Below, in pieces: positions 19,573-35,538 of a DNA stretch of 64,000 nt. The position numbers and the translations under genes were made by a program. The number at the start of each line of letters is the position of its first letter. The stretch's first letter is position 1. A model generated the notes under the pieces. The model did no database searches, was not told the DNA's origin, and saw nothing but the letters and a program-made list of their open reading frames with translations. This stretch comes from an uncultured Pseudomonadota bacterium. GTDB taxonomy: Bacteria > Pseudomonadota > Alphaproteobacteria > RF32 > CAG-239. The stretch lies in contig CADAJN010000008.1 in the NCBI GenBank assembly GCA_902788365.1, positions 2,331-66,330 of the forward strand. Direction: 5' to 3'.

Positions 19573-19654
19573 AAACGCCGTCTTTAATTCTATCTTAAGG
19601 GTTTTCCATTAGAAAAAATTACTGAATCATAGTATATATACTAATTGGAAAACC

Positions 19655-20488
19655 ATGATGAAAGAAGATTTAATCACCTTAAAAAAGTTTTATTTGCAGG
19701 CAGTCGCGCAAATTCCTGCCGATTCGTTTTTTCACGAATCAATCAATCACAAATTTTGCCATTCTGTTGCGGTTTGGCAAACCGGTCGCAAAATTATGAC
19801 ACAAACACCGGAATTAGCCGACATTGATGCCGAATTTAAAACTTTAGCCGAACGTGCTTTGCTGTTCCACGATGTCGGACGCTTTCATGAGGCCGTTTGC
19901 CGCTATCGGGCTATGCAACAAAAAATATCCGTCAGCGCCGCCTCTAATAAATATGACCACGGCTTTATCGGCTATGATTTATTAAAAGATTTGCCACCAT
20001 ATAACGATTTGCGGATTTTGCTGGCCATCAAATATCATGGTAAAATGATGGAAGAAGTCCGCGCCTCTGAGCTATGGCAACAAGCCGAACAATCGCCGCT
20101 CGGTAATGACGCTGGAAAAATCCTCTATTTGGTGCGCGATGCCGACAAACTTGCCAACTTAGAGGTAATAAAAACCCAAAATCATCTGCAGCACGACATC
20201 TTTTTTAAATTACTGTCTGACGAAGCACGCCACGCACCAATCTCTGCCGTGGTTTGGCAACAATTTTTGGCCCGTCAAACTATTATATTTACCGATTTGC
20301 ACTCGTTTGCTGACCGCATTTTAATGGTTTTATCTTGGATTTTTGACCTTAACTATCAATATACTAAAAAAGCTTTTATTTCCGATGGTTACGCCAGATT
20401 TTTGCTTAATGAACTAGCTAAATATCACCCCAACAATAACGATTTAGACCGAATTACGCTTCTTATCAGCTCTATTTTCATAAAATAA
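19655..20488 (+). CDS. HD-domain protein
   Basis: HS, LLFHDVGRF, DHG, AIKYH, VRDADKL. Confidence 0.85.
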   Translation: MMKEDLITLKKFYLQAVAQIPADSFFHESINHKFCHSVAVWQTGRKIMTQTPELADIDAEFKTLAERALLFHDVGRFHEAVCRYRAMQQKISVSAASNKYDHGFIGYDLLKDLPPYNDLRILLAIKYHGKMMEEVRASELWQQAEQSPLGNDAGKILYLVRDADKLANLEVIKTQNHLQHDIFFKLLSDEARHAPISAVVWQQFLARQTIIFTDLHSFADRILMVLSWIFDLNYQYTKKAFISDGYARFLLNELAKYHPNNNDLDRITLLISSIFIK

Positions 20489-26876: not shown

Positions 26877-26899
26877 CTTTGTGCCAAAAGGACTTTGCC

Positions 26900-28615
26900 A
26901 TGCCAAAATTTTCCCGTTTTCTTGATTTTATTTTATTTCATAACCTGATTATGGCCACTTTATTTGTGCTTATCGGTATCACAATCAGCCTTTGTCTGCG
27001 CTATGAAATCATCATTGATTTATACAATTATCACTATTTTGTGCCGTGGGCTTTCTTGCATAACCGCACTTTCACCGATATTGCATTGGCTGCCGAAAAC
27101 AGTTATCACAATCCGCTGATTGATATCCCTATATATTTATTGGTTAAATACTTTAACCATCAACCTTGGGTTTACTACACTTATTTCGGTGTTTTCTGGG
27201 GCTTATTGATTTTTGTTTTCTATAAAATCTGCCGCAATATTTTACAACCGAGCCAAAAGGCCGAGCTTTTCTTAGCTCTGATTATCGCCATGACCGGCTT
27301 TGCTACCTTAAGCCAAATCGGCACCTCGTCCCAAGAGGTAATTTTGGCCTTAGGCACAATGACCACACTTTATTGGTTACACAAAGAAATTTTCATAACT
27401 GCCAAAGAACGCCCTTTAGTTATTTCGGCGGCAGGGTTTTTGCTTGGCGCCATGTTCGGTTTTAAATATACGGCGGTCACATATTGCTTGGGTGCCGGTT
27501 TTACCCTGATTTTATTTTTCAAATATTTGCGCCACCCGATTAAAACCGTTTTTTACTTTGCGCTGGGCGGTATTCTTGGCTTTTTATGTATTGACGGTTT
27601 TTGGATGTGGCGCTTATATCAAGAATTTGGCAATCCGCTGTTTCCGTATTTGAATAACATTTTCAAATCCGATTACATTGACGCCAAAATGTTCAGCTAC
27701 AACAGCGTTCTTTATAAAAAGAGTTCTTTAGATTACCTGATTTTTCCGTATTTGGTTTCTTTTAATCAAGAAAACCGCATTGCCGCCGAAGCCTTTTATC
27801 GTGACCCGCGCTTTGCCATCGGCTACAGCTTATTGCTCATTGCCGCCATATCTTATTTGTGGTCTTTGATAACCCCCAAAAAACGCCAATTAAATGTCGG
27901 CACTTTGTTTTTAGTCGTGTTTGCATTTGTCAGTTATGTGGTGTGGCTGTTTATTCTGCCGATTATGCGCTATGCCATTCCGATAGAACTGCTGATTGCT
28001 ATATTAGGCGTTATGTATTTCTTCACCCTCAAGCCAAAATCAGCAATAGGTTTTGCTTTATGGTGCAGCGCCGGATTGATTATGCTGTTTACGCTTTTTG
28101 CCGGCTTACCTTACCCGAATTGGGGACAGAGGTTAGGAGAAACACAGATATTATATAAAAATAATGTGCACCTGCCGCAAAATTCGTTAATATTAACCGT
28201 CAATTACGGCACCGGTGCGACTGCGGCACGCATTGCCGAAAACAATCCGGATGTAAAATTTGCCAACATTACCACGCCTTTCACAATGGAAGGCACCAAG
28301 TTGGCGCAAAAAATAGAACAATATAAAAAAAACAGCGACTACATTGCCTATATGGCGGTTGTAAAAACACCGTTAACCGCGTTTGATTATCACACACCGA
28401 CCAAATATGTGTTTGTAGATAAACGTATGAAAAACTCGTATGAAAACATTCGTTATATTCTTCAAAACGCCATCGGAATTGATAAGTTTTATTGCCAAGA
28501 CATATCAAATGCGCCACACATGCTTAAAGTATTTTTATGCATAGATAAAAAAGACAAGCACACCGTTTTTCCGTCGTCACAGCGGTCTGTAATATTAAAG
28601 CCGCGAAATAAATAG
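26900..28615 (+). CDS. Multi-TM GT-C-fold glycosyltransferase-like membrane protein
   Basis: DLYNYH, YHNPLID, GFKYT, FGNPLFPYLNNIFKS, RDPR, RYAIP; many TM segments. Confidence 0.7.
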   Translation: MPKFSRFLDFILFHNLIMATLFVLIGITISLCLRYEIIIDLYNYHYFVPWAFLHNRTFTDIALAAENSYHNPLIDIPIYLLVKYFNHQPWVYYTYFGVFWGLLIFVFYKICRNILQPSQKAELFLALIIAMTGFATLSQIGTSSQEVILALGTMTTLYWLHKEIFITAKERPLVISAAGFLLGAMFGFKYTAVTYCLGAGFTLILFFKYLRHPIKTVFYFALGGILGFLCIDGFWMWRLYQEFGNPLFPYLNNIFKSDYIDAKMFSYNSVLYKKSSLDYLIFPYLVSFNQENRIAAEAFYRDPRFAIGYSLLLIAAISYLWSLITPKKRQLNVGTLFLVVFAFVSYVVWLFILPIMRYAIPIELLIAILGVMYFFTLKPKSAIGFALWCSAGLIMLFTLFAGLPYPNWGQRLGETQILYKNNVHLPQNSLILTVNYGTGATAARIAENNPDVKFANITTPFTMEGTKLAQKIEQYKKNSDYIAYMAVVKTPLTAFDYHTPTKYVFVDKRMKNSYENIRYILQNAIGIDKFYCQDISNAPHMLKVFLCIDKKDKHTVFPSSQRSVILKPRNK

Positions 28616-28646: not shown

Positions 28647-29525
28647 TTACCTGTTAATAAAGTTTCTGATACGAAAATATTGCAACATAATCAGAAACAG
28701 ACACAGTCTTTTTCTAAAAGATTGTTTATCCGGATTATTCAAACGTCTTTTTATCAACGTCAAATAAACGATTTGTATGCCATAAAGCCACTCTTTTGAT
28801 GATAACAAAGCGTATTTGTTAATACTTGAAAACAATCTCTTAAAGCGAGACATATTTCCCCAAATACCGAGAAAACCGGAAAGCTCCAACAACAGTGACG
28901 CCATATCTTCACTGATGTGACCGTATCGTAACATTTCTCCGTCTATTATATGAAAACTTCCATCTGCCGCCAGCAATATATTATTGGCCATCAAGTCGCC
29001 ATGAATCAAATTATGCGTTTCCGGAAAATAAACCAATTCTCTTTTTAATAACGCCATAATCTTGGCATATAAAATAGAAAATACGTTTTTTTTTGTTTCT
29101 TTTAAGGCCGTTTCTGCCTCAGTAAACAGCACATTTATATCAATCATCGAATAGATAACCGTGCTATCCGGTTTGCAATTCAATATTTTTTGGTAGTTAT
29201 GCCATAAACACTCAATAACCGCTTCCGTGCAATCTCTGTAATGTATTTTATGACCGTCTATAAATTGCGTAAGCAAAAATTTATATTCCCTAAAATCTTC
29301 GCTTTTGCTTTCATATAACACACCGTATAATCTGCAAAATTCTTTGATTTTATAGAAAGCGCCTTTATCTTCCAGTAACTTTAAAAAATATTTTCCTTTT
29401 GTCGTTATAACACAAAAATTATACGATGAACCACCTGTATATATTTCATACATATCTTTATATTCTGAAGGAAAAAGATTTTTTTCAACAAACCTTTGCA
29501 GTTCGGTATAATGTGAAAATTTCAT
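28647..29525 (-). CDS. Aminoglycoside phosphotransferase / choline-kinase-like phosphotransferase
   Basis: GGSSYNF, YFLK, LIHGDLMANNIL, IIDGE; AT-rich. Confidence 0.8.
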   Translation of the reverse strand: MKFSHYTELQRFVEKNLFPSEYKDMYEIYTGGSSYNFCVITTKGKYFLKLLEDKGAFYKIKEFCRLYGVLYESKSEDFREYKFLLTQFIDGHKIHYRDCTEAVIECLWHNYQKILNCKPDSTVIYSMIDINVLFTEAETALKETKKNVFSILYAKIMALLKRELVYFPETHNLIHGDLMANNILLAADGSFHIIDGEMLRYGHISEDMASLLLELSGFLGIWGNMSRFKRLFSSINKYALLSSKEWLYGIQIVYLTLIKRRLNNPDKQSFRKRLCLFLIMLQYFRIRNFINR

Positions 29526-29621
29526 GGTTAAACTTTCAATACAGTATAATAACACTGGCAGTAATATACAAAAAAGTGTTTAATATAGAGTAAACCCGCT
29601 TTTTGCCTATATGATTTTGCA

Positions 29622-29659
29622 AAATAAAAAACGCCCAAAGGGCGTTTCTTTATTGGCGG
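29622..29659. repeat. Displaced tRNA-Ser downstream terminator plus TTGGCGG core (left island junction, att-like)
   Basis: AAATAAAAAACGCCCAAAGGGCGTTTCTTTATTGGCGG nearly identical to 35301-35341. Confidence 0.85.
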
Positions 29660-29738
29660 GCAGCATCGTGCAATCTACGGACCAATAGGTAAAATAAAAA
29701 ATGCTTATATTTTGATATTTTCAAATTCGTCCAGATGT

Positions 29739-29927
29739 TCAACGACGATTGTCGGCCATTGCGTATGCTGTTTCAATGGTTACCTCCTTTTCGGCCTCAT
29801 AAATTGCCTTAGCTCCGATTGTATAAAAATCCACCAGTCTGTTTGTTATTTCATCAAGTTCAGCATCCGTAACGTCGGGATAATAAACTTTAAGCTCATT
29901 TTTGAGCAAACTATATGTATCTGTCAT
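29739..29927 (-). CDS. Small hypothetical protein at the island end
   Basis: 62-aa ORF with protein-like composition. Confidence 0.5.
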   Translation of the reverse strand: MTDTYSLLKNELKVYYPDVTDAELDEITNRLVDFYTIGAKAIYEAEKEVTIETAYAMADNRR

Positions 29928-29989
29928 GCATTATAGAATTCAGAGCAATGCGCTTTTCTAATAAAATAAAGCTCCAAATAGTTTATTTT

Positions 29990-30604
29990 TCAAATGCAAG
30001 CAGACTGCCTATCTATCCTGTCTAAATAACGTCTTAAAGTGCCGCGACCGACACCTAAAATGCGCGCAATTTCAGATTTTGATATACCTTTTTCGAGCAA
30101 TTTACGGATGCGCCGGCTGTTTTTGCTTAATTTCAGTTTTTTTGACTCTGCCGTAAATGGACGGCCGAGCTTTTTGCCTTGCGCCTTAATATTTGCCAAG
30201 CTTGTTTTGGTGCGGTCAGAGATGAGTTTTCGTTCAATTTCGGCAGCTAAACCGAAGGCAAAGGCCAAAACTTTGCTTTGTATATCGTTTCCAAGCCGAT
30301 AATTTTCTTTTATCGTCCAGACCTGGCAATTTTTATTAAGACACGTTTCCAAAATACGCATTACTTCCAACAGGGAGCGACCTAAACGCGATATTTCACA
30401 AGAGATTAACACATCATTTTCTTGCAAATTGTCCAGCAATTCTCCAAGCTTGCGATTTTTCAGGGTTTTCCGGCTTGATATTTTTTCTTCTACCCATGTG
30501 TCGATTTTTATGCCTTCTTTAAGCGCGAAATTTTCTATTTCAAAACGCTGATGTTCGAGCGTCTGTTTATTTGAGCTAACCCTTATATATCCGATGTTTG
30601 CCAT
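29990..30604 (-). CDS. Serine recombinase, Mpi-like DNA invertase family
   Basis: GYIRVSS..Q...QR, EISRLGRS, VWTIKENYRLGNDIQSKVLAFAFGLAAEIERKLISDRTK, GRP, C-terminal HTH. Confidence 0.9.
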   Translation of the reverse strand: MANIGYIRVSSNKQTLEHQRFEIENFALKEGIKIDTWVEEKISSRKTLKNRKLGELLDNLQENDVLISCEISRLGRSLLEVMRILETCLNKNCQVWTIKENYRLGNDIQSKVLAFAFGLAAEIERKLISDRTKTSLANIKAQGKKLGRPFTAESKKLKLSKNSRRIRKLLEKGISKSEIARILGVGRGTLRRYLDRIDRQSACI

Positions 30605-30629
30605 ATTCAAAAGTCTCCAAAAATAAGTT

Positions 30630-30812
30630 AAAAAACTGGTCCATTTAATAGAACGTTTAAATCAACCAGTTTTTTGCACTTACACACCTTTTATTCAAAA
30701 ATAGTGAAATACAGCATTTATAAGATTTATGAAAGATTTACACTTCTTAACTTCTGGCAAGAAAATCCCTTTTTGCCCTTTGGCTTTAAACGTTGGTTTA
30801 TGGCAAAGGCAT
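30630..30812. promoter_or_regulatory. Pair of inverted dyad-symmetric recombinase sites; candidate invertible promoter segment
   Basis: Site L AAAAAACTGGTCCATTTAATAG-AA-CGTTTAAATCAACCAGTTTTTT; site R TGCCCTTTGGCTTTAAACG-TT-GGTTTATGGCAAAGGCA; shared inverted 10-mer AACGTTTAAA. Confidence 0.6.
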
Positions 30813-30838
30813 AAGTATGGAAATGTCGGAGATAAGAA

Positions 30839-31753
30839 ATGGTTAAGGTTGCTGTTATTATACCGGTTTATAATGTTGAAACATATTTACCTCAATGCTT
30901 GGATAGTGTGATAAATCAAACACTTTCGGATATTGAAATTATCTGCGTAAATGATGGTTCAACCGATAATAGTGGCGAAATTTTAGCTCAATATGCGGTA
31001 AAGGAGAAAAGAATAAAGGTAATAAACCAACAAAATCAAGGGTTATCTGCCGCACGAAATGCAGGATTGAAAATAGCAACGGCAAACTACATTTCGTTTA
31101 TTGACAGTGATGATTTTGTGCATCCTCAATTTTTAGAAATTTTATATAATGCCATTCAAACTAGTAATTCTGATATTGCCGGTTGCAATTTTGCAAAAAT
31201 TTCTGATGATAAAGAAATTTTGAAGATAGAAAATACATCACCAAAGATTTATACACCAGCATTAAACGTGCTACTGGATACGAAAAATTTTATCCATTTT
31301 AATGTGTGGAATAAGCTTTATAATCGTAAGGCAATGCAAAATATTTCTTTTGTTGAGGGGATTTACTATGAAGATTGGATTTTTAATATTTGCGTTTTCG
31401 CACAGATTAAATCATTTGCTTGGATAAACTCTCCGCTTTATGGATATCGTATTTCCAATGAATCTATCATGCGCAGTTCATATAATTTGAAGAAATTAAA
31501 CGATTATGTAACTGGAATCAATGAAGTCTATGATTTTATAAATAAAAATTATCCGGAACAATGGCAGAAAATAAAACAAACGCGAATTGCCCGCACTGTA
31601 AAAATGATGATGAACAGCGCTTTACGATCAAAAGATGCTGAAATTGTTGCAAACACCAAAAAAGTACTAAAAAAACTATATGATTGCTCTGTTATTGGAT
31701 ATAGCGGGCTTTCTTTGCACAATAAAATTAAACTACTCAATTTTTTACATTAA
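30839..31753 (+). CDS. Glycosyltransferase family 2
   Basis: IIPVYNVE, VNDGSTD, GLSAARNAGL, FIDSDD, YYED. Confidence 0.93.
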   Translation: MVKVAVIIPVYNVETYLPQCLDSVINQTLSDIEIICVNDGSTDNSGEILAQYAVKEKRIKVINQQNQGLSAARNAGLKIATANYISFIDSDDFVHPQFLEILYNAIQTSNSDIAGCNFAKISDDKEILKIENTSPKIYTPALNVLLDTKNFIHFNVWNKLYNRKAMQNISFVEGIYYEDWIFNICVFAQIKSFAWINSPLYGYRISNESIMRSSYNLKKLNDYVTGINEVYDFINKNYPEQWQKIKQTRIARTVKMMMNSALRSKDAEIVANTKKVLKKLYDCSVIGYSGLSLHNKIKLLNFLH

Positions 31754-31764
31754 AAGGAGCCAAT

Positions 31765-32757
31765 ATGATACCAAAAAGAATTTTTTATGTATGGGGCGCA
31801 TATGATGATAAAAAGCGTGATGTTTTAGCTTGTATGCAATCTTGGCGACAAAATTGCCAAGATTATGAAATAGTTGAAATTAACGAAAATAGTGTGGAAT
31901 ATTTTGACTTCCAAAAAGAATTACAGCAAAACAAATGGTTTAGAACGGTCTTTGAAAAGAAGATGTGGGCTTATGTTGCTGACTACATACGCGTTAAAGT
32001 CTTATATGATAATGGCGGAATTTATTTGGATACAGATGTTACTGTTATTAAAAATTTTGATAAATTTCTTAATGATCCTGCTTTTGTAGGAATTCAATGT
32101 AGCGGAAGATGGAATTATGTAGAACCTGCAATTTTAGGTGCACAAAGAGGAAACAAATTTCTACATGAGATTACTGAATTTTATAATGACGAGATATGGA
32201 CACAACCAATATATACGATGCCACAAATTTTTGAACATTATTTGCAGCGTATGTATAATATATATAAATTTCCTTCTAAGCAAAAGCAAACCTTAATTAA
32301 GACAAATGATATTTATATCTATCCAGAGCGTATTTTTATTCCTTTTGAATTTGGTCAAAAATTTTCTCCTGAATGTGTAGAAAAAGATACTCATACAATT
32401 CATTGGTTTGGCGGTAGTTGGTTGAAACCTGACATTGAATATTTTTTGAAGAATAAACATAAAAATACCTCATTTATATCTTCAAAAATTAAACGCTATT
32501 ACGTTATTAAATTATTTAAGTATATTCCTATTATATGTATATATACCAAAGAAAAAGAAAATAATGGTATGTGGAATAAAATAACATATATCAGATTGTT
32601 GTATGTTATTCCGCTTATAAAATATATAAAGAATATTAAAGGTTTCAAAATAAAGTTATTCGACGTTATTTCTTTTTTAAGATACAAAAACATAGAAAAC
32701 AAATACAATTTTTATTTATTTAATTTTATTCCTCTTTTAAAAATTCGGAGAAAATAG
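31765..32757 (+). CDS. GT32-like (DXD) glycosyltransferase
   Basis: MIPKRIFYVW, WAYVADYIR, GGIYLDTDV, IHWFGGSW. Confidence 0.9.
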   Translation: MIPKRIFYVWGAYDDKKRDVLACMQSWRQNCQDYEIVEINENSVEYFDFQKELQQNKWFRTVFEKKMWAYVADYIRVKVLYDNGGIYLDTDVTVIKNFDKFLNDPAFVGIQCSGRWNYVEPAILGAQRGNKFLHEITEFYNDEIWTQPIYTMPQIFEHYLQRMYNIYKFPSKQKQTLIKTNDIYIYPERIFIPFEFGQKFSPECVEKDTHTIHWFGGSWLKPDIEYFLKNKHKNTSFISSKIKRYYVIKLFKYIPIICIYTKEKENNGMWNKITYIRLLYVIPLIKYIKNIKGFKIKLFDVISFLRYKNIENKYNFYLFNFIPLLKIRRK

Positions 32758-33768
32758 ATGCCTAAAGTTACAATTATCATTCCTGTTTATAACGTCGAAA
32801 AATATATACACCAGTCTGTAAATAGTGCTCTTGCTCAAACATTGAAAGACATTGAAATTATTCTTATTGATGATCAGAGCCCGGATAATTGTCCGCAAAT
32901 TTGCGATGAATATGCTAAAATGGATTCAAGAGTTATTGTTGTCCACCAAAGAAACAGAGGTTTGGGTGGAGCTAGAAATGCAGGTTTAGATATAGCAAAA
33001 GGAGATTATATTTTATTTTTAGACTCGGATGATTGGATCGCTCTAGAGTGTTGCGAACAAATGTATAATATTGCTCTGAAGTATCAAACAGATATTGTCT
33101 TATCAGGAGAAGTTTTATATCTAGAAGACCAGGATAGGTTTTCTCCTGGGTACAGGCATTATCGCGCACAAATTATGCAGAATATAACGCATGAAACATA
33201 TATTAAATGTTTTACACCGGCATGGGGCAGATTATATAAAAAATCCTTTATAGATAAATATCATTTAAGATTCGTCGAAAAATGTCTTTATGAAGATAAT
33301 TCTTGGGGATGTTTGATCGCAGGTTTAACTGAAAAAGTATCATATGCGGGTAATTTTTTCTATTACCGGCAACGGTCTGGAAGCATTACGAGTAATGTAG
33401 ACGAACGGGTTTTAGATTGGGTCCGTGATTTTAAGTATTTTCAAAAAATACTTAAAAAAGTTCCTTTACCTAAGCAAAAGTTAATTTGGGCTTATGAGTG
33501 GTATTTGCTGAACTTTTACAATTACTTTAAAAAATGTTCTCCAAATCTGCAATGGCGTTTTTTTCATTTTATATCGGATAATTTTCAACCTGTAAATCTC
33601 TCTGAAAAGGATTTATTAAAAAATGCAATCTTTAACGATAAAAATGGTGAAATTTTAGAATTTTACAGAAAAATAAAGAAAAAAGAGCTGCATTCATATT
33701 GTTTAGACTTCAAACTATTTGGTTGTATTCCCCTTATTTCTTTTATTGCTAAAGAAAAGGAAATATAA
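32758..33768 (+). CDS. Glycosyltransferase family 2
   Basis: IIPVYNVEKY, DDQSPD, GLGGARNAGL, FLDSDD, YED. Confidence 0.93.
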   Translation: MPKVTIIIPVYNVEKYIHQSVNSALAQTLKDIEIILIDDQSPDNCPQICDEYAKMDSRVIVVHQRNRGLGGARNAGLDIAKGDYILFLDSDDWIALECCEQMYNIALKYQTDIVLSGEVLYLEDQDRFSPGYRHYRAQIMQNITHETYIKCFTPAWGRLYKKSFIDKYHLRFVEKCLYEDNSWGCLIAGLTEKVSYAGNFFYYRQRSGSITSNVDERVLDWVRDFKYFQKILKKVPLPKQKLIWAYEWYLLNFYNYFKKCSPNLQWRFFHFISDNFQPVNLSEKDLLKNAIFNDKNGEILEFYRKIKKKELHSYCLDFKLFGCIPLISFIAKEKEI

Positions 33769-33770
33769 CT

Positions 33771-34541
33771 ATGCTGCACTATATTCATAGACATGATATT
33801 CAAAATACCGGTGATTATAAATGTTGTCCTTTAGAATATTTTTTCTATATGTTTCCTTTAGATTACCTAGTACATGATATTTATAATATTAACTATGCAA
33901 TGATCGAAAAAAATGATATTGTTATATTAGGCGGTGGTGGATTATTAGATTGTATAAATAAATGGAATGTCAGCATAAATAAATTACTAGATATTTGTGA
34001 CAATGTTATATCATGGGGATGCGGGTTTAATTTTTATAACACAATAATAAATGATAAAATAGCATTTGAAAAGTTCAAATTATTATCAATTAGAGATTAT
34101 CGCCATCCTTCAAAATATAAATTTGTGCCTTGTGTTTCTTGCATGATGCCTGAATTATCGAGATTTTTTGAGATTAAACGGAATATCGGAATTTTAGAAT
34201 ACAAGGATAATCCTATAATAACTTTCAGTTATCCCAAAATATCTAATAAAGCATCATTAGATGAAATTATTGAATTTATAGGATCATCCAACGTTATTAT
34301 TACAAATTCCTACCACGCCTGTTATTGGGCAACCTTAATGAAAAAGAAAGTTATTCTTTACAATGAGCACAGTTCAAAATTTGATTATATACAATATGCG
34401 CCTGTAAAATATAGCGGTAATCTTCGTAAAGACATTCGGCGGGCAAAGATTTATGAAGATGCTCTAGATAATTGTAGAAAAACAAATATTGAATTTGCAA
34501 ATAATGTTCGTAACTTTATAAAAAAATCAGAGGACATTTAA
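33771..34541 (+). CDS. Polysaccharide pyruvyl transferase-like protein
   Basis: NTGD, ILGGGGL, WGCG, SIRD, ITNSYHA. Confidence 0.8.
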   Translation: MLHYIHRHDIQNTGDYKCCPLEYFFYMFPLDYLVHDIYNINYAMIEKNDIVILGGGGLLDCINKWNVSINKLLDICDNVISWGCGFNFYNTIINDKIAFEKFKLLSIRDYRHPSKYKFVPCVSCMMPELSRFFEIKRNIGILEYKDNPIITFSYPKISNKASLDEIIEFIGSSNVIITNSYHACYWATLMKKKVILYNEHSSKFDYIQYAPVKYSGNLRKDIRRAKIYEDALDNCRKTNIEFANNVRNFIKKSEDI

Positions 34542-34542
34542 C

Positions 34543-34974
34543 ATGACAACATATTACATAGTATCCGGTGGATTTGCCCCCATTCATGAAGGACATATCG
34601 AGATGATAAAGGCTTCGGCTGCAGCATCTGACGGTGTGATTGTATTGGCTAATTCTGATGCTTGGTTGTGCCGCAAAAAAGGTAAAAATTTCCAGACCAT
34701 GAAAACTCGTAAAGCGATTTTGGAAAACTTAAAAGGCGTTATAGATGTTTTGGAATTTGATGATTCAGATAATTCGGCTTCTGACGGCATAAGAAAAGCT
34801 CGTGCCAAATATCCGGCTGAACGTTTGGTGTTTGCAAACGGCGGAGACAGAGGCAAAGATAATATTCCGGAAGGTCCGGCTTGCCAAGAGTGTAATATGG
34901 ATTTAGCTTTTGGGGTTGGCGGTAACAATAAAGCCAACTCATCTTCTTGGATTTTGGAAAACTGGAATAAGTAA
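34543..34974 (+). CDS. Cytidylyl/adenylyltransferase (TagD/RfaE-II-like)
   Basis: SGGFAPIHEGH (HxGH), NSD.WL.RKKG, FANGGDR, KANSSSWIL. Confidence 0.88.
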   Translation: MTTYYIVSGGFAPIHEGHIEMIKASAAASDGVIVLANSDAWLCRKKGKNFQTMKTRKAILENLKGVIDVLEFDDSDNSASDGIRKARAKYPAERLVFANGGDRGKDNIPEGPACQECNMDLAFGVGGNNKANSSSWILENWNK

Positions 34975-35050
34975 TTTTTTAGCATTAGTCGATTTTCAAA
35001 ATATATAAGCATCGCACATCAACTTACGCACGGGGTTGGTGTTTATTTTT

Positions 35051-35433
35051 TGGCGGTGAGATAGGGAAAACTTCGCTGCGCTACATGCTCGGCGCTCATC
35101 GCTTTCAGCGACCGGCATACTCCGTCTGCCTTGCGCTTGAGTGCGAACAAAGGGCGTTTATTTATTGGCGGTGAGATAGGGAAAAACTTCGCTGTGCTAC
35201 GTGCTCGGCGCTCATCGCTTTCAGCGACCGGCATACTCCGTCTGCCTTGCGCTTGAGTGCGAACCCCTTCTTCTGGGGTTCAAATCCTAACTCTCCGCAT
35301 AAATAAAAAAAACGCCCCAAAGGGCGTTTCTTTATTGGCGGTGAGATAGGGAAAACTTCGCTGCGCTACATGCTCGGCGCTCATCGCTTTCAGCGACCGG
35401 CATACTCCGTCTGCCTTGCGCTTGAGTGCGAAC
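35051..35433 (-). repeat. Three tandem tRNA-linked repeats (about 98 nt; 35051-35148, 35166-35264, 35336-35433)
   Basis: Each unit is the last 17 nt of tRNA-Ser, a 76-nt conserved insert and GTTCG; the copies are near-identical. Confidence 0.92.
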
Positions 35434-35446
35434 GGCGTTTCTTTAT

Positions 35447-35538
35447 TGGCGGTGAGATAGGGATTCGAACCCCAGGTACGCAACAAAACGTACAATTGAT
35501 TTCGAGTCAACCGCATTCGACCACTCTGCCATCTCACC
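35447..35538 (-). tRNA. tRNA-Ser (anticodon CGA)
   Basis: GGTGAGATGGCAGAGTGGTCGAATGCGG-TTGA-CTCGAAA-TCAA, long variable arm, GGGTTCGAATCCC, encoded CCA. Confidence 0.96.

Follow-up and report, generated by a model that had tools for sequence, protein, structure and literature searches.

An invertible DNA segment next to an Mpi-family invertase gene: a candidate phase switch ahead of a glycan operon in an uncultured rumen alphaproteobacterium

Introduction

Phase variation by DNA inversion has been well studied in Bacteroides, in enterobacteria and in a few pathogens. For the serine recombinases Hin, Gin and gamma-delta resolvase, dimers bind dyad-symmetric sites, which synapse, are cut by serine-mediated cleavages with a 2-nt stagger and are religated after a rotation of 180 degrees. 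The segments inverted by Hin and Gin span 1-3 kb, and the hin gene lies inside its own segment, while the fimS element of E. coli is flipped by tyrosine recombinases. The Mpi invertase of Bacteroides fragilis, together with its invertible capsular-polysaccharide promoters, was reportedly described by Coyne and co-workers in 2003. To our knowledge, the small-genome uncultured Alphaproteobacteria of the rumen and gut are almost unstudied. The subject here is a stretch of 64,000 nucleotides (the window; contig C8, positions 2331-66330) from the genome of such a bacterium (1.59 Mb in 13 contigs), in which a small serine recombinase gene of the Mpi family and a divergent operon of glycan genes are separated by two dyad-symmetric sites in inverted orientation, named P (proximal to the recombinase; site L of the preliminary description of this DNA) and D (distal; its site R).

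The recombinase is a small serine invertase that scores right at the cut-off of the NCBIfam model named after Mpi, and in both cases a short segment bounded by inverted repeats stands before surface-glycan genes in a gut bacterium. According to passages of PMC4747536, the regions inverted by Mpi number 13, of which seven are polysaccharide (PS) promoters and many lie at a distance; the present enzyme, in contrast, lies at its own single switch, the arm motif of P occurs once, the host is an alphaproteobacterium, and the two sites share just 10 bp, each dyad having its own type of arm. The distinguishing feature of a 'master' invertase of the Mpi type, namely many dispersed regions, is not found at this locus. 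With Hin/hix and Gin/gix the locus shares a catalytic domain and a helix-turn-helix (HTH) domain (Gin, E 1e-11), inverted dyads with a non-palindromic AA centre and a recombinase beside the segment, whereas it differs from them in the length of the segment, ~140 bp, in the position of the recombinase gene outside it and in its low sequence identity. It also resembles fimS and the invertons of PhaseFinder and DeepInverton, for which passages of PMC11602134 and PMC11892184 describe short invertible promoter regions that control surface structures and are seen in both orientations in sequence data. The locus is thus closest in enzyme family to the Bacteroides Mpi and in layout to local systems like Gin/gix. 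A literature search yielded no account of such a family of cassettes from gut Alphaproteobacteria; the supplementary tables of inverton catalogues, which lay outside the search, may list such loci.

Results

Inversion of the segment in metagenome contigs

In natural populations, the segment bounded by the 10-bp inverted repeats undergoes inversion. The left copy of the repeat, AACGTTTAAA, occupies 30652-30661 on the plus strand and the right copy, its reverse complement, 30785-30794 on the minus strand, with the segment's unique part of 123 bp (30662-30784) between them. At least part of the window is contained in 20 public sequencing runs, the majority labelled as bovine gut metagenomes, and Logan contigs from four of these were aligned to 29400-32000. 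One run (X1) is the possible source sample of the genome, a second (X3) is another sample of the same study and a third (X2) belongs to a separate study. In X1, a contig (record 5) with a depth of 63 covers 30393-32000 in the reference form. In X3 and X2, contigs carry the unique part inverted: a 525-nt contig of X3 (record 17) runs through 30283-30651 on the plus strand and then along the minus strand from 30794 back to 30652, one contig of X2 (the pair of records 10 and 11) fuses 30556-30651 to the reverse of 30737-30794, and a second contig of X2 fuses the reverse of 30785-30919 to 30662-30711, all with 0 mismatches. The opposite-strand joint 30651/30794 is accordingly present in X2 and X3 (sides of 58 and 143 letters, respectively) and the joint 30662/30785 in X2 (side of 50 letters). 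As 10 letters fit either side of every joint, with 0 other letters, exchange takes place within the shared 10-mer, and since the words from which Logan contigs are assembled have 31 letters, and thus exceed the 10-bp repeat, the repeat alone cannot make such joins. The proposal that L and R are crossover sites is thereby borne out in two samples other than X1, and that of an invertible segment by both recombinant junctions, in contigs from two studies.

The crossover sites

Site P (30630-30675) is a dyad of two 16-nt arms centred on AA (30652-30653), has an A-tract and a T-tract as its flanks, and reads CTGGTCCATTTAATAG before and CGTTTAAATCAACCAG after this centre. A repeat search returned it with 19-nt arms (30630-30648 and 30657-30675) that are 89% complementary; when the 228-bp spacer between recombinase and operon was shuffled 1000 times by dinucleotides, only one shuffle reached its 17 pairs of 19. 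Site D (30775-30812) is a looser dyad about the TT at 30793-30794, with CCTTTGGCTTTAAACG before and GGTTTATGGCAAAGGC after the centre, and its outer arm, GGTTTATG, is kept in relatives. The two centres are 141 bp apart, AACGTTTAAA is inverted between them, and, in the arrangement needed for inversion, the AA of the centre is read on the plus strand in P and on the minus strand in D. The identical asymmetric 2-bp core in inverted dyads that marks Hin/Gin-type systems is therefore present (AA at P and TT at D on the plus strand), and by analogy with those enzymes cleavage would fall at the central AA/TT. The outer halves of the sites match at 8/10 and 9/10 the sequence ARACGTWCGT, a putative core consensus of Mpi put forward in the preliminary description, which had placed both sites, the recombinase and the operon where they are found here.

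The 10-mer was rejected as statistical evidence on its own, as it is not enriched and an exact inverted match of 10 nt is nothing unusual for an AT-rich spacer. On both strands of the 1.59-Mb genome AACGTTTAAA occurs five times where about seven occurrences are expected, two of the five being the P/D pair; the pair falls outside the 25 longest ranked repeat pairs, another exact 10-mer pair lies nearby, and the longest separated repeat in the shuffle test is the 11-nt outer part of the P dyad rather than AACGTTTAAA. The pair is raised above chance by its conservation in relatives together with the observed inversion.

The two sites differ in arm type, GGTYRWTTTWATYG at P as opposed to GGYCACAAWCS at D. 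In the orientation of the window (state A), in which ..WAAATCAACC adjoins P, both sites are dyads of like arms, and in the flipped orientation (state B), in which GGTTGATTTWAWCG adjoins D, both are hybrids, a difference that might bias the direction of switching. The P-arm motif TTTAWTAGAAC occurs once in the genome and the strict D-arm motif twice, the second time (contig C2) in GC-rich, coding-like DNA without a partner, a match discarded as due to chance. With these motifs no further site pair was found in the genome, and the single P-arm motif makes the element look like a private, local switch with no 'master' role.

The cassette in related genomes

A scan of species-representative genomes returned 241 relatives of the recombinase, the best 80 of which (70-93% identity) were compared with the window in their upstream regions (n = 81). 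These relatives come mainly from metagenome-assembled genomes (MAGs) of gut and rumen. The records of 61 of the 80 are titled Alphaproteobacteria, in keeping with the host assignment of the preliminary description; the remainder are mostly titled 'proteobacterium' or named alphaproteobacterial candidates, and six are named as other phyla. A naive search for the longest inverted repeat in the 81 regions gave mostly AT-rich noise and was replaced by anchoring on the conserved arms. The outer arm of P, GGTCAnTTTAWTAG followed by the central AA, is matched in 78 of the 81 regions, one match being dubious, and the D pattern (CG, the central TT and GGTTTRTG) is also found in 53, the window included. 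The regular expression used for D demands GTT and then GGTT[TG], so the invariance of those columns in the conservation profile is built in. The remaining 25 regions with a P arm lack a match to this expression, and as several are truncated or carry another D arm, they are no sign of loss. In the 53 loci the centres of P and D are 115-145 bp apart, mainly 127-128 or 139-145 bp, and conservation beyond the D centre drops to background by about +18, where the differing cargo genes begin.

Both orientations occur among these loci: 45 are in state A, four in state B and four are variants, one of which (L049) is read as flipped. Once flipped, the state-B segments are colinear with the state-A segments, and near-identical pairs of opposite orientation exist, with one differing position between L034 (A) and L036 (B) and three between L060 (A) and L066 (B). 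The segment of the window itself aligns to that of an 82%-identical orthologue with a score of 23 inverted and 4 direct. In a 93%-identical relative P carries AACATT and D carries AATGTT, where the window has AACGTT at both sites; since AATGTT is the reverse complement of AACATT, the same G-to-A change is present in both copies. Inversion at these sites is, from these comparisons, a property of the family.

A subgroup of five cassettes (L071, L079, L080, L081 and L093) has a palindromic TA centre with the core AAACGTACGTTT, which stands at both sites in three of them (L071, L079 and L080). Sites of this subgroup would have no fixed relative orientation, so that deletion as well as inversion might be possible. 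A genus-wide pattern for the flipped D junction was also tried, giving 10 matches in eight of 50 genomes and none in a reversed control; as it also matched P sites of other paralogue groups, it was unusable for counting states or locked fossils.

The recombinase gene and its paralogues

The small serine recombinase (DNA invertase) is encoded on the minus strand at 29990-30610 by an open reading frame (ORF) of 206 aa, with the Pfam domains Resolvase (PF00239, residues 6-147, 1.3e-32) and HTH_7 (PF02796, residues 158-196, 1e-08). The ATG at 30604, behind GGAGA, is the likelier true start, and the protein atlas entry of the recombinase begins at residue 3. Its best NCBIfam match by far is NF009949, the 'master DNA invertase Mpi family', with 272.0 bits for the 206-aa ORF against a curated cut-off of 272; in a six-frame search of the genome the same copy scores 271.1 bits, just below the cut-off, which is passed in one of 14 named control genomes. 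The closest atlas clusters are auto-named Mpi-family recombinases and come largely from Bacteroidota. These two lines of evidence uphold the Mpi-like character given to the protein in the preliminary description. The nearest solved structures are those of the Gin invertase (4m6f/3uj3, E 1.5e-11), in which the query's IGYIRVSS aligns with IGYVRVST of Gin and places the catalytic RVSS motif on the RVST of that enzyme; the ORF is intact.

The genome carries four invertase paralogues, the other three being 51-58% identical to the window's copy and scoring 297.9-314.6 bits on NF009949, all above the cut-off. Of 24 other genomes sampled from the genus, 20 contain invertase homologues, with a maximum of nine per genome. 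From its position, we infer that the adjacent recombinase is the catalyst at P and D. The paralogue near 19.9 kb of contig C6 (locus L004/L107, ~19600-19860; 297.9 bits) has its own look-alike site pair, a 17-nt inverted repeat of the AAAAACGACCGTTTTTT type with copies ~143 bp apart and a gene directly after the distal site, and probably forms a second private switch. The paralogues at C6:105944-106528 and C10:50222-50791 reach the top scores on the Mpi model (307.4 and 314.6 bits, respectively); no adjacent inverted-repeat pair was seen at either of them, each has a hairpin just upstream, and a weaker recombinase-like ORF follows the former.

The glycan operon and other cargo genes

The operon is divergent from the recombinase, its first gene beginning 46 nt past the D centre. 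Its five plus-strand genes (30839-34974) encode a family 2 glycosyltransferase (GT2; 30839-31753), a DXD sugar-binding/Caps_synth transferase (31765-32757), a second GT2 (32758-33768), a polysaccharide pyruvyl transferase (33771-34541) and a cytidylyltransferase-like protein (34543-34974), with intergenic gaps of 11, 0, 2 and 1 nt. Domain matches agree with the earlier gene calls for the recombinase and all five of these genes. The G+C content is 0.29-0.35 across 28-34 kb and 0.29-0.34 within the operon, compared with 0.40-0.44 for the contigs of the genome.

In 52 of the 53 loci, a gene oriented away from the recombinase begins 14-115 nt past D. Such downstream genes of the relatives (n = 51) include five autotransporters, one YadA anchor, four OMP beta-barrel/Opacity proteins and one C5 DNA methylase, in addition to one each of ankyrin, SPFH, SHOCT, bPH_2 and HTH_7, and 35 have no family over threshold. 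These neighbours are read as the cargo of a portable module of invertase plus switch that stands ahead of varied, often surface-related genes and, in the window, ahead of a glycan module. At locus L064 the cassette lies directly before the C5 cytosine DNA methylase gene (PF00145, 1.5e-94), and by its position this methyltransferase would be phase-variable. The seven closest homologues of the window's first GT2, from other species (60-66% identity), have no recombinase upstream within the 1.5 kb searched in six of them and within the ~320 nt to the contig end in the seventh (L127). By eye, all seven of these upstream regions contain a TTGACA-type -35 box, followed 17 nt later by TATATA in L125, L127 and L128.

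On the other flank of the recombinase, a kinase-like gene of the APH/choline-kinase family (28647-29555, minus strand; weak matches) neighbours a gene at 26879-28615 (plus strand) for a 578-aa protein with no family over the cut-off, which by eye is hydrophobic and membrane-protein-like; as the kinase-like gene lies in the low-GC stretch, the two genes may belong to the same island and serve in glycan or lipid decoration. Beyond the operon, a tRNA-Ser(cga) gene (35447-35538, minus strand) is preceded by three more copies of its 33-nt 3' end at 35035, 35150 and 35320, interspersed with three copies of a 111-nt unit, the whole spanning 35035-35538. Such an array resembles att sites, separates the low-GC glycan island from the tRNA and points to serial integration at tRNA-Ser.

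Orientation and transcription

The promoter question concerns which orientation of the segment is ON for the operon. The best promoter-like match within the segment is TTTACA-N18-GAAAAT (30737-30766, plus strand; 9 of 12), which faces the operon in the reference form, as do all three matches of at least 8 of 12 inside the segment, with none opposite. These internal matches weakly favour the reference form as ON. Among the relatives no conserved internal promoter could be defined: matches of at least 9 of 12 are scattered (29 rightward, 15 leftward), and extended -10 motifs (12 rightward, nine leftward) have no common position, except for TGCTATAAT in four close relatives within L025-L029. By eye, a TAAAAT-like block recurs ~32 nt before D in the long class of segments.

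A different pattern is seen across the family at the D junction. In 40 of the 53 loci a hexamer resembling a -10 box (nAnnnT, with 4 or more of 6 letters as in TATAAT) begins 8-10 nt past the D centre, compared with 1-14 of 53 loci for other downstream windows of three offsets; 28 distinct forms of it occur, TATAGT, TACAAT and CATAAT among them. At its far end the segment has an arm with TTGATT, TTGACT or TTGACA (a TTGAYW box), and flipping places this box 16-17 nt upstream of the D hexamer. Hybrid -35/-10 combinations at the D junction reach at least 9 of 12 in 31 of the 53 loci when flipped and in nine of 53 when unflipped (means 8.6 and 7.8, respectively). The family-wide pattern suggests a promoter that the crossover site divides in two and that only state B makes whole. 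Extended to a general scheme, this would be a portable switch with a fixed -10 outside D and a -35 in the segment arm behind an A-tract, the crossover core falling in the spacer between the two boxes, plugged in before adhesins, porins, a DNA methylase and glycan genes, and the orientation found in most assemblies, including that of the window, would be OFF.

Such a scheme is possible and at present rather doubtful. The difference between the states is moderate and the arm doubles as the predicted binding site of the recombinase; the hexamer is replaced in the window by CAAAGG, with a score of 6 of 12 whichever the state, and the four close relatives carry the internal TGCTATAAT facing D in state A. 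In the hybrid and junction promoters of insertion sequences, the end of the element brings a -35 to a resident -10. Were the split-promoter reading true, the cassette would resemble them in placing a mobile -35 16-17 nt from a fixed -10, and would differ from them in that the -35 is moved by reversible inversion instead of transposition or circle formation; no split invertible promoter is described in the title or abstract of the matches listed in the literature search. For the operon of the window, we lean towards the reference orientation as ON, consider the flipped orientation a possible if less probable choice, and think it unlikely that the orientation has no effect on the operon.

Discussion

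The locus is most probably an inverton, in which an Mpi-family invertase lies beside two inverted sites 141 bp apart and the segment between them forms a switch ahead of the glycan operon. By analogy with Hin and Gin, recombinase dimers would bind each dyad and pair P with D, cuts staggered by 2 nt would open all four strands at the central AA/TT, one half would turn through 180 degrees, and religation would leave the segment flipped. The flip would most likely toggle transcription of the operon between high and low, so that members of a clone would differ in the decoration of their surface glycans. Several observations weigh against this interpretation. The evidence for the inverted form consists of assembled contigs with a depth of 2.3-4.7 instead of raw reads and gives no ratio within a population, and X3 shares its study with the possible source sample. 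Gaps in depth along the contigs were given no weight. The catalyst is assigned by adjacency, and the three paralogous invertases could act instead or too. The promoter-like matches in the segment are weak, the best reaching 9 of 12, and three were found where shuffles give 3.6, while the -10-like hexamer that the family carries outside D is absent from the window. Finally, a Pfam scan of the operon detected no initiating transferase, flippase or polymerase.

A first alternative accepts the inversion as real and assigns it mainly to the control of the recombinase, or of the minus-strand genes behind it (a 62-aa ORF and the kinase-like gene), with the operon served by a flip-independent promoter. 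P lies ~20 nt before the ribosome-binding region of the recombinase, whose promoter must thus be located within the segment or past it, in the flipped state the three weak promoter-like matches are all directed at the recombinase, and the missing hexamer outside D would fit this reading as well. However, the 46 nt between D and the GT2 start contain no promoter-like match, and in 52 of the 53 loci a gene begins just past D. A leftward promoter with its -10 in the outer arm of P, to which the segment would shuttle a -35, was tried and rejected, having no dependence on state (means of 6.1 and 5.9 of 12; at least 9 of 12 in one and none of the 45 loci scored). Control directed mainly at the recombinase side is therefore considered improbable.

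It is less probable still, and by some distance, that the locus is a decaying relic, flipped in the past or by a paralogous invertase while the local gene is inactive. This possibility draws on the score of the window's copy, which falls below those of the other three paralogues on the Mpi model (271.1 as against 298-315 bits), on the D flank of the window with its missing hexamer, and on the 25 of 81 related regions without a D match, several of which are truncated or have a different D arm. The intact ORF with its RVSS motif aligned to Gin and the full dyads at both sites speak against it, and the identity of flanks and segment in both orientations across samples, with 0 other letters, argues for recent flipping. 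That the dyads are merely res subsites or autoregulatory operators without programmed inversion, the inverted contigs being artefacts, is barely credible: the recombinase belongs to the resolvase fold family, and P overlaps the region just upstream of its gene and looks like a bidirectional A-tract/T-tract hairpin, yet both recombinant junctions occur without mismatch in runs from two studies and in contigs of 31-letter words, near-identical segments are oppositely oriented in independent genome assemblies, the sites are inverted rather than direct with no third subsite, and the inversion seen excludes as the whole story this case, which the preliminary description had named as refuting its proposal.

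This kind of cassette is already known in general, and its control of glycan synthesis through a promoter is plausible at the present locus. The locus provides direct sequence evidence for inversion at a putative surface-gene switch in rumen/gut Alphaproteobacteria, by way of an Mpi-family invertase and a private 140-bp switch. The cassette is compact, with ~0.62 kb of gene and ~0.2 kb of sites, and its two clear states make it handy for studying how serine invertases act on non-identical dyads. If the split-promoter reading is true, it would show the assembly of a promoter through recombination. The range of cargo, from autotransporters and porin-like proteins to a DNA methylase and a glycan module, points to a general, transferable route of phase variation in this lineage.

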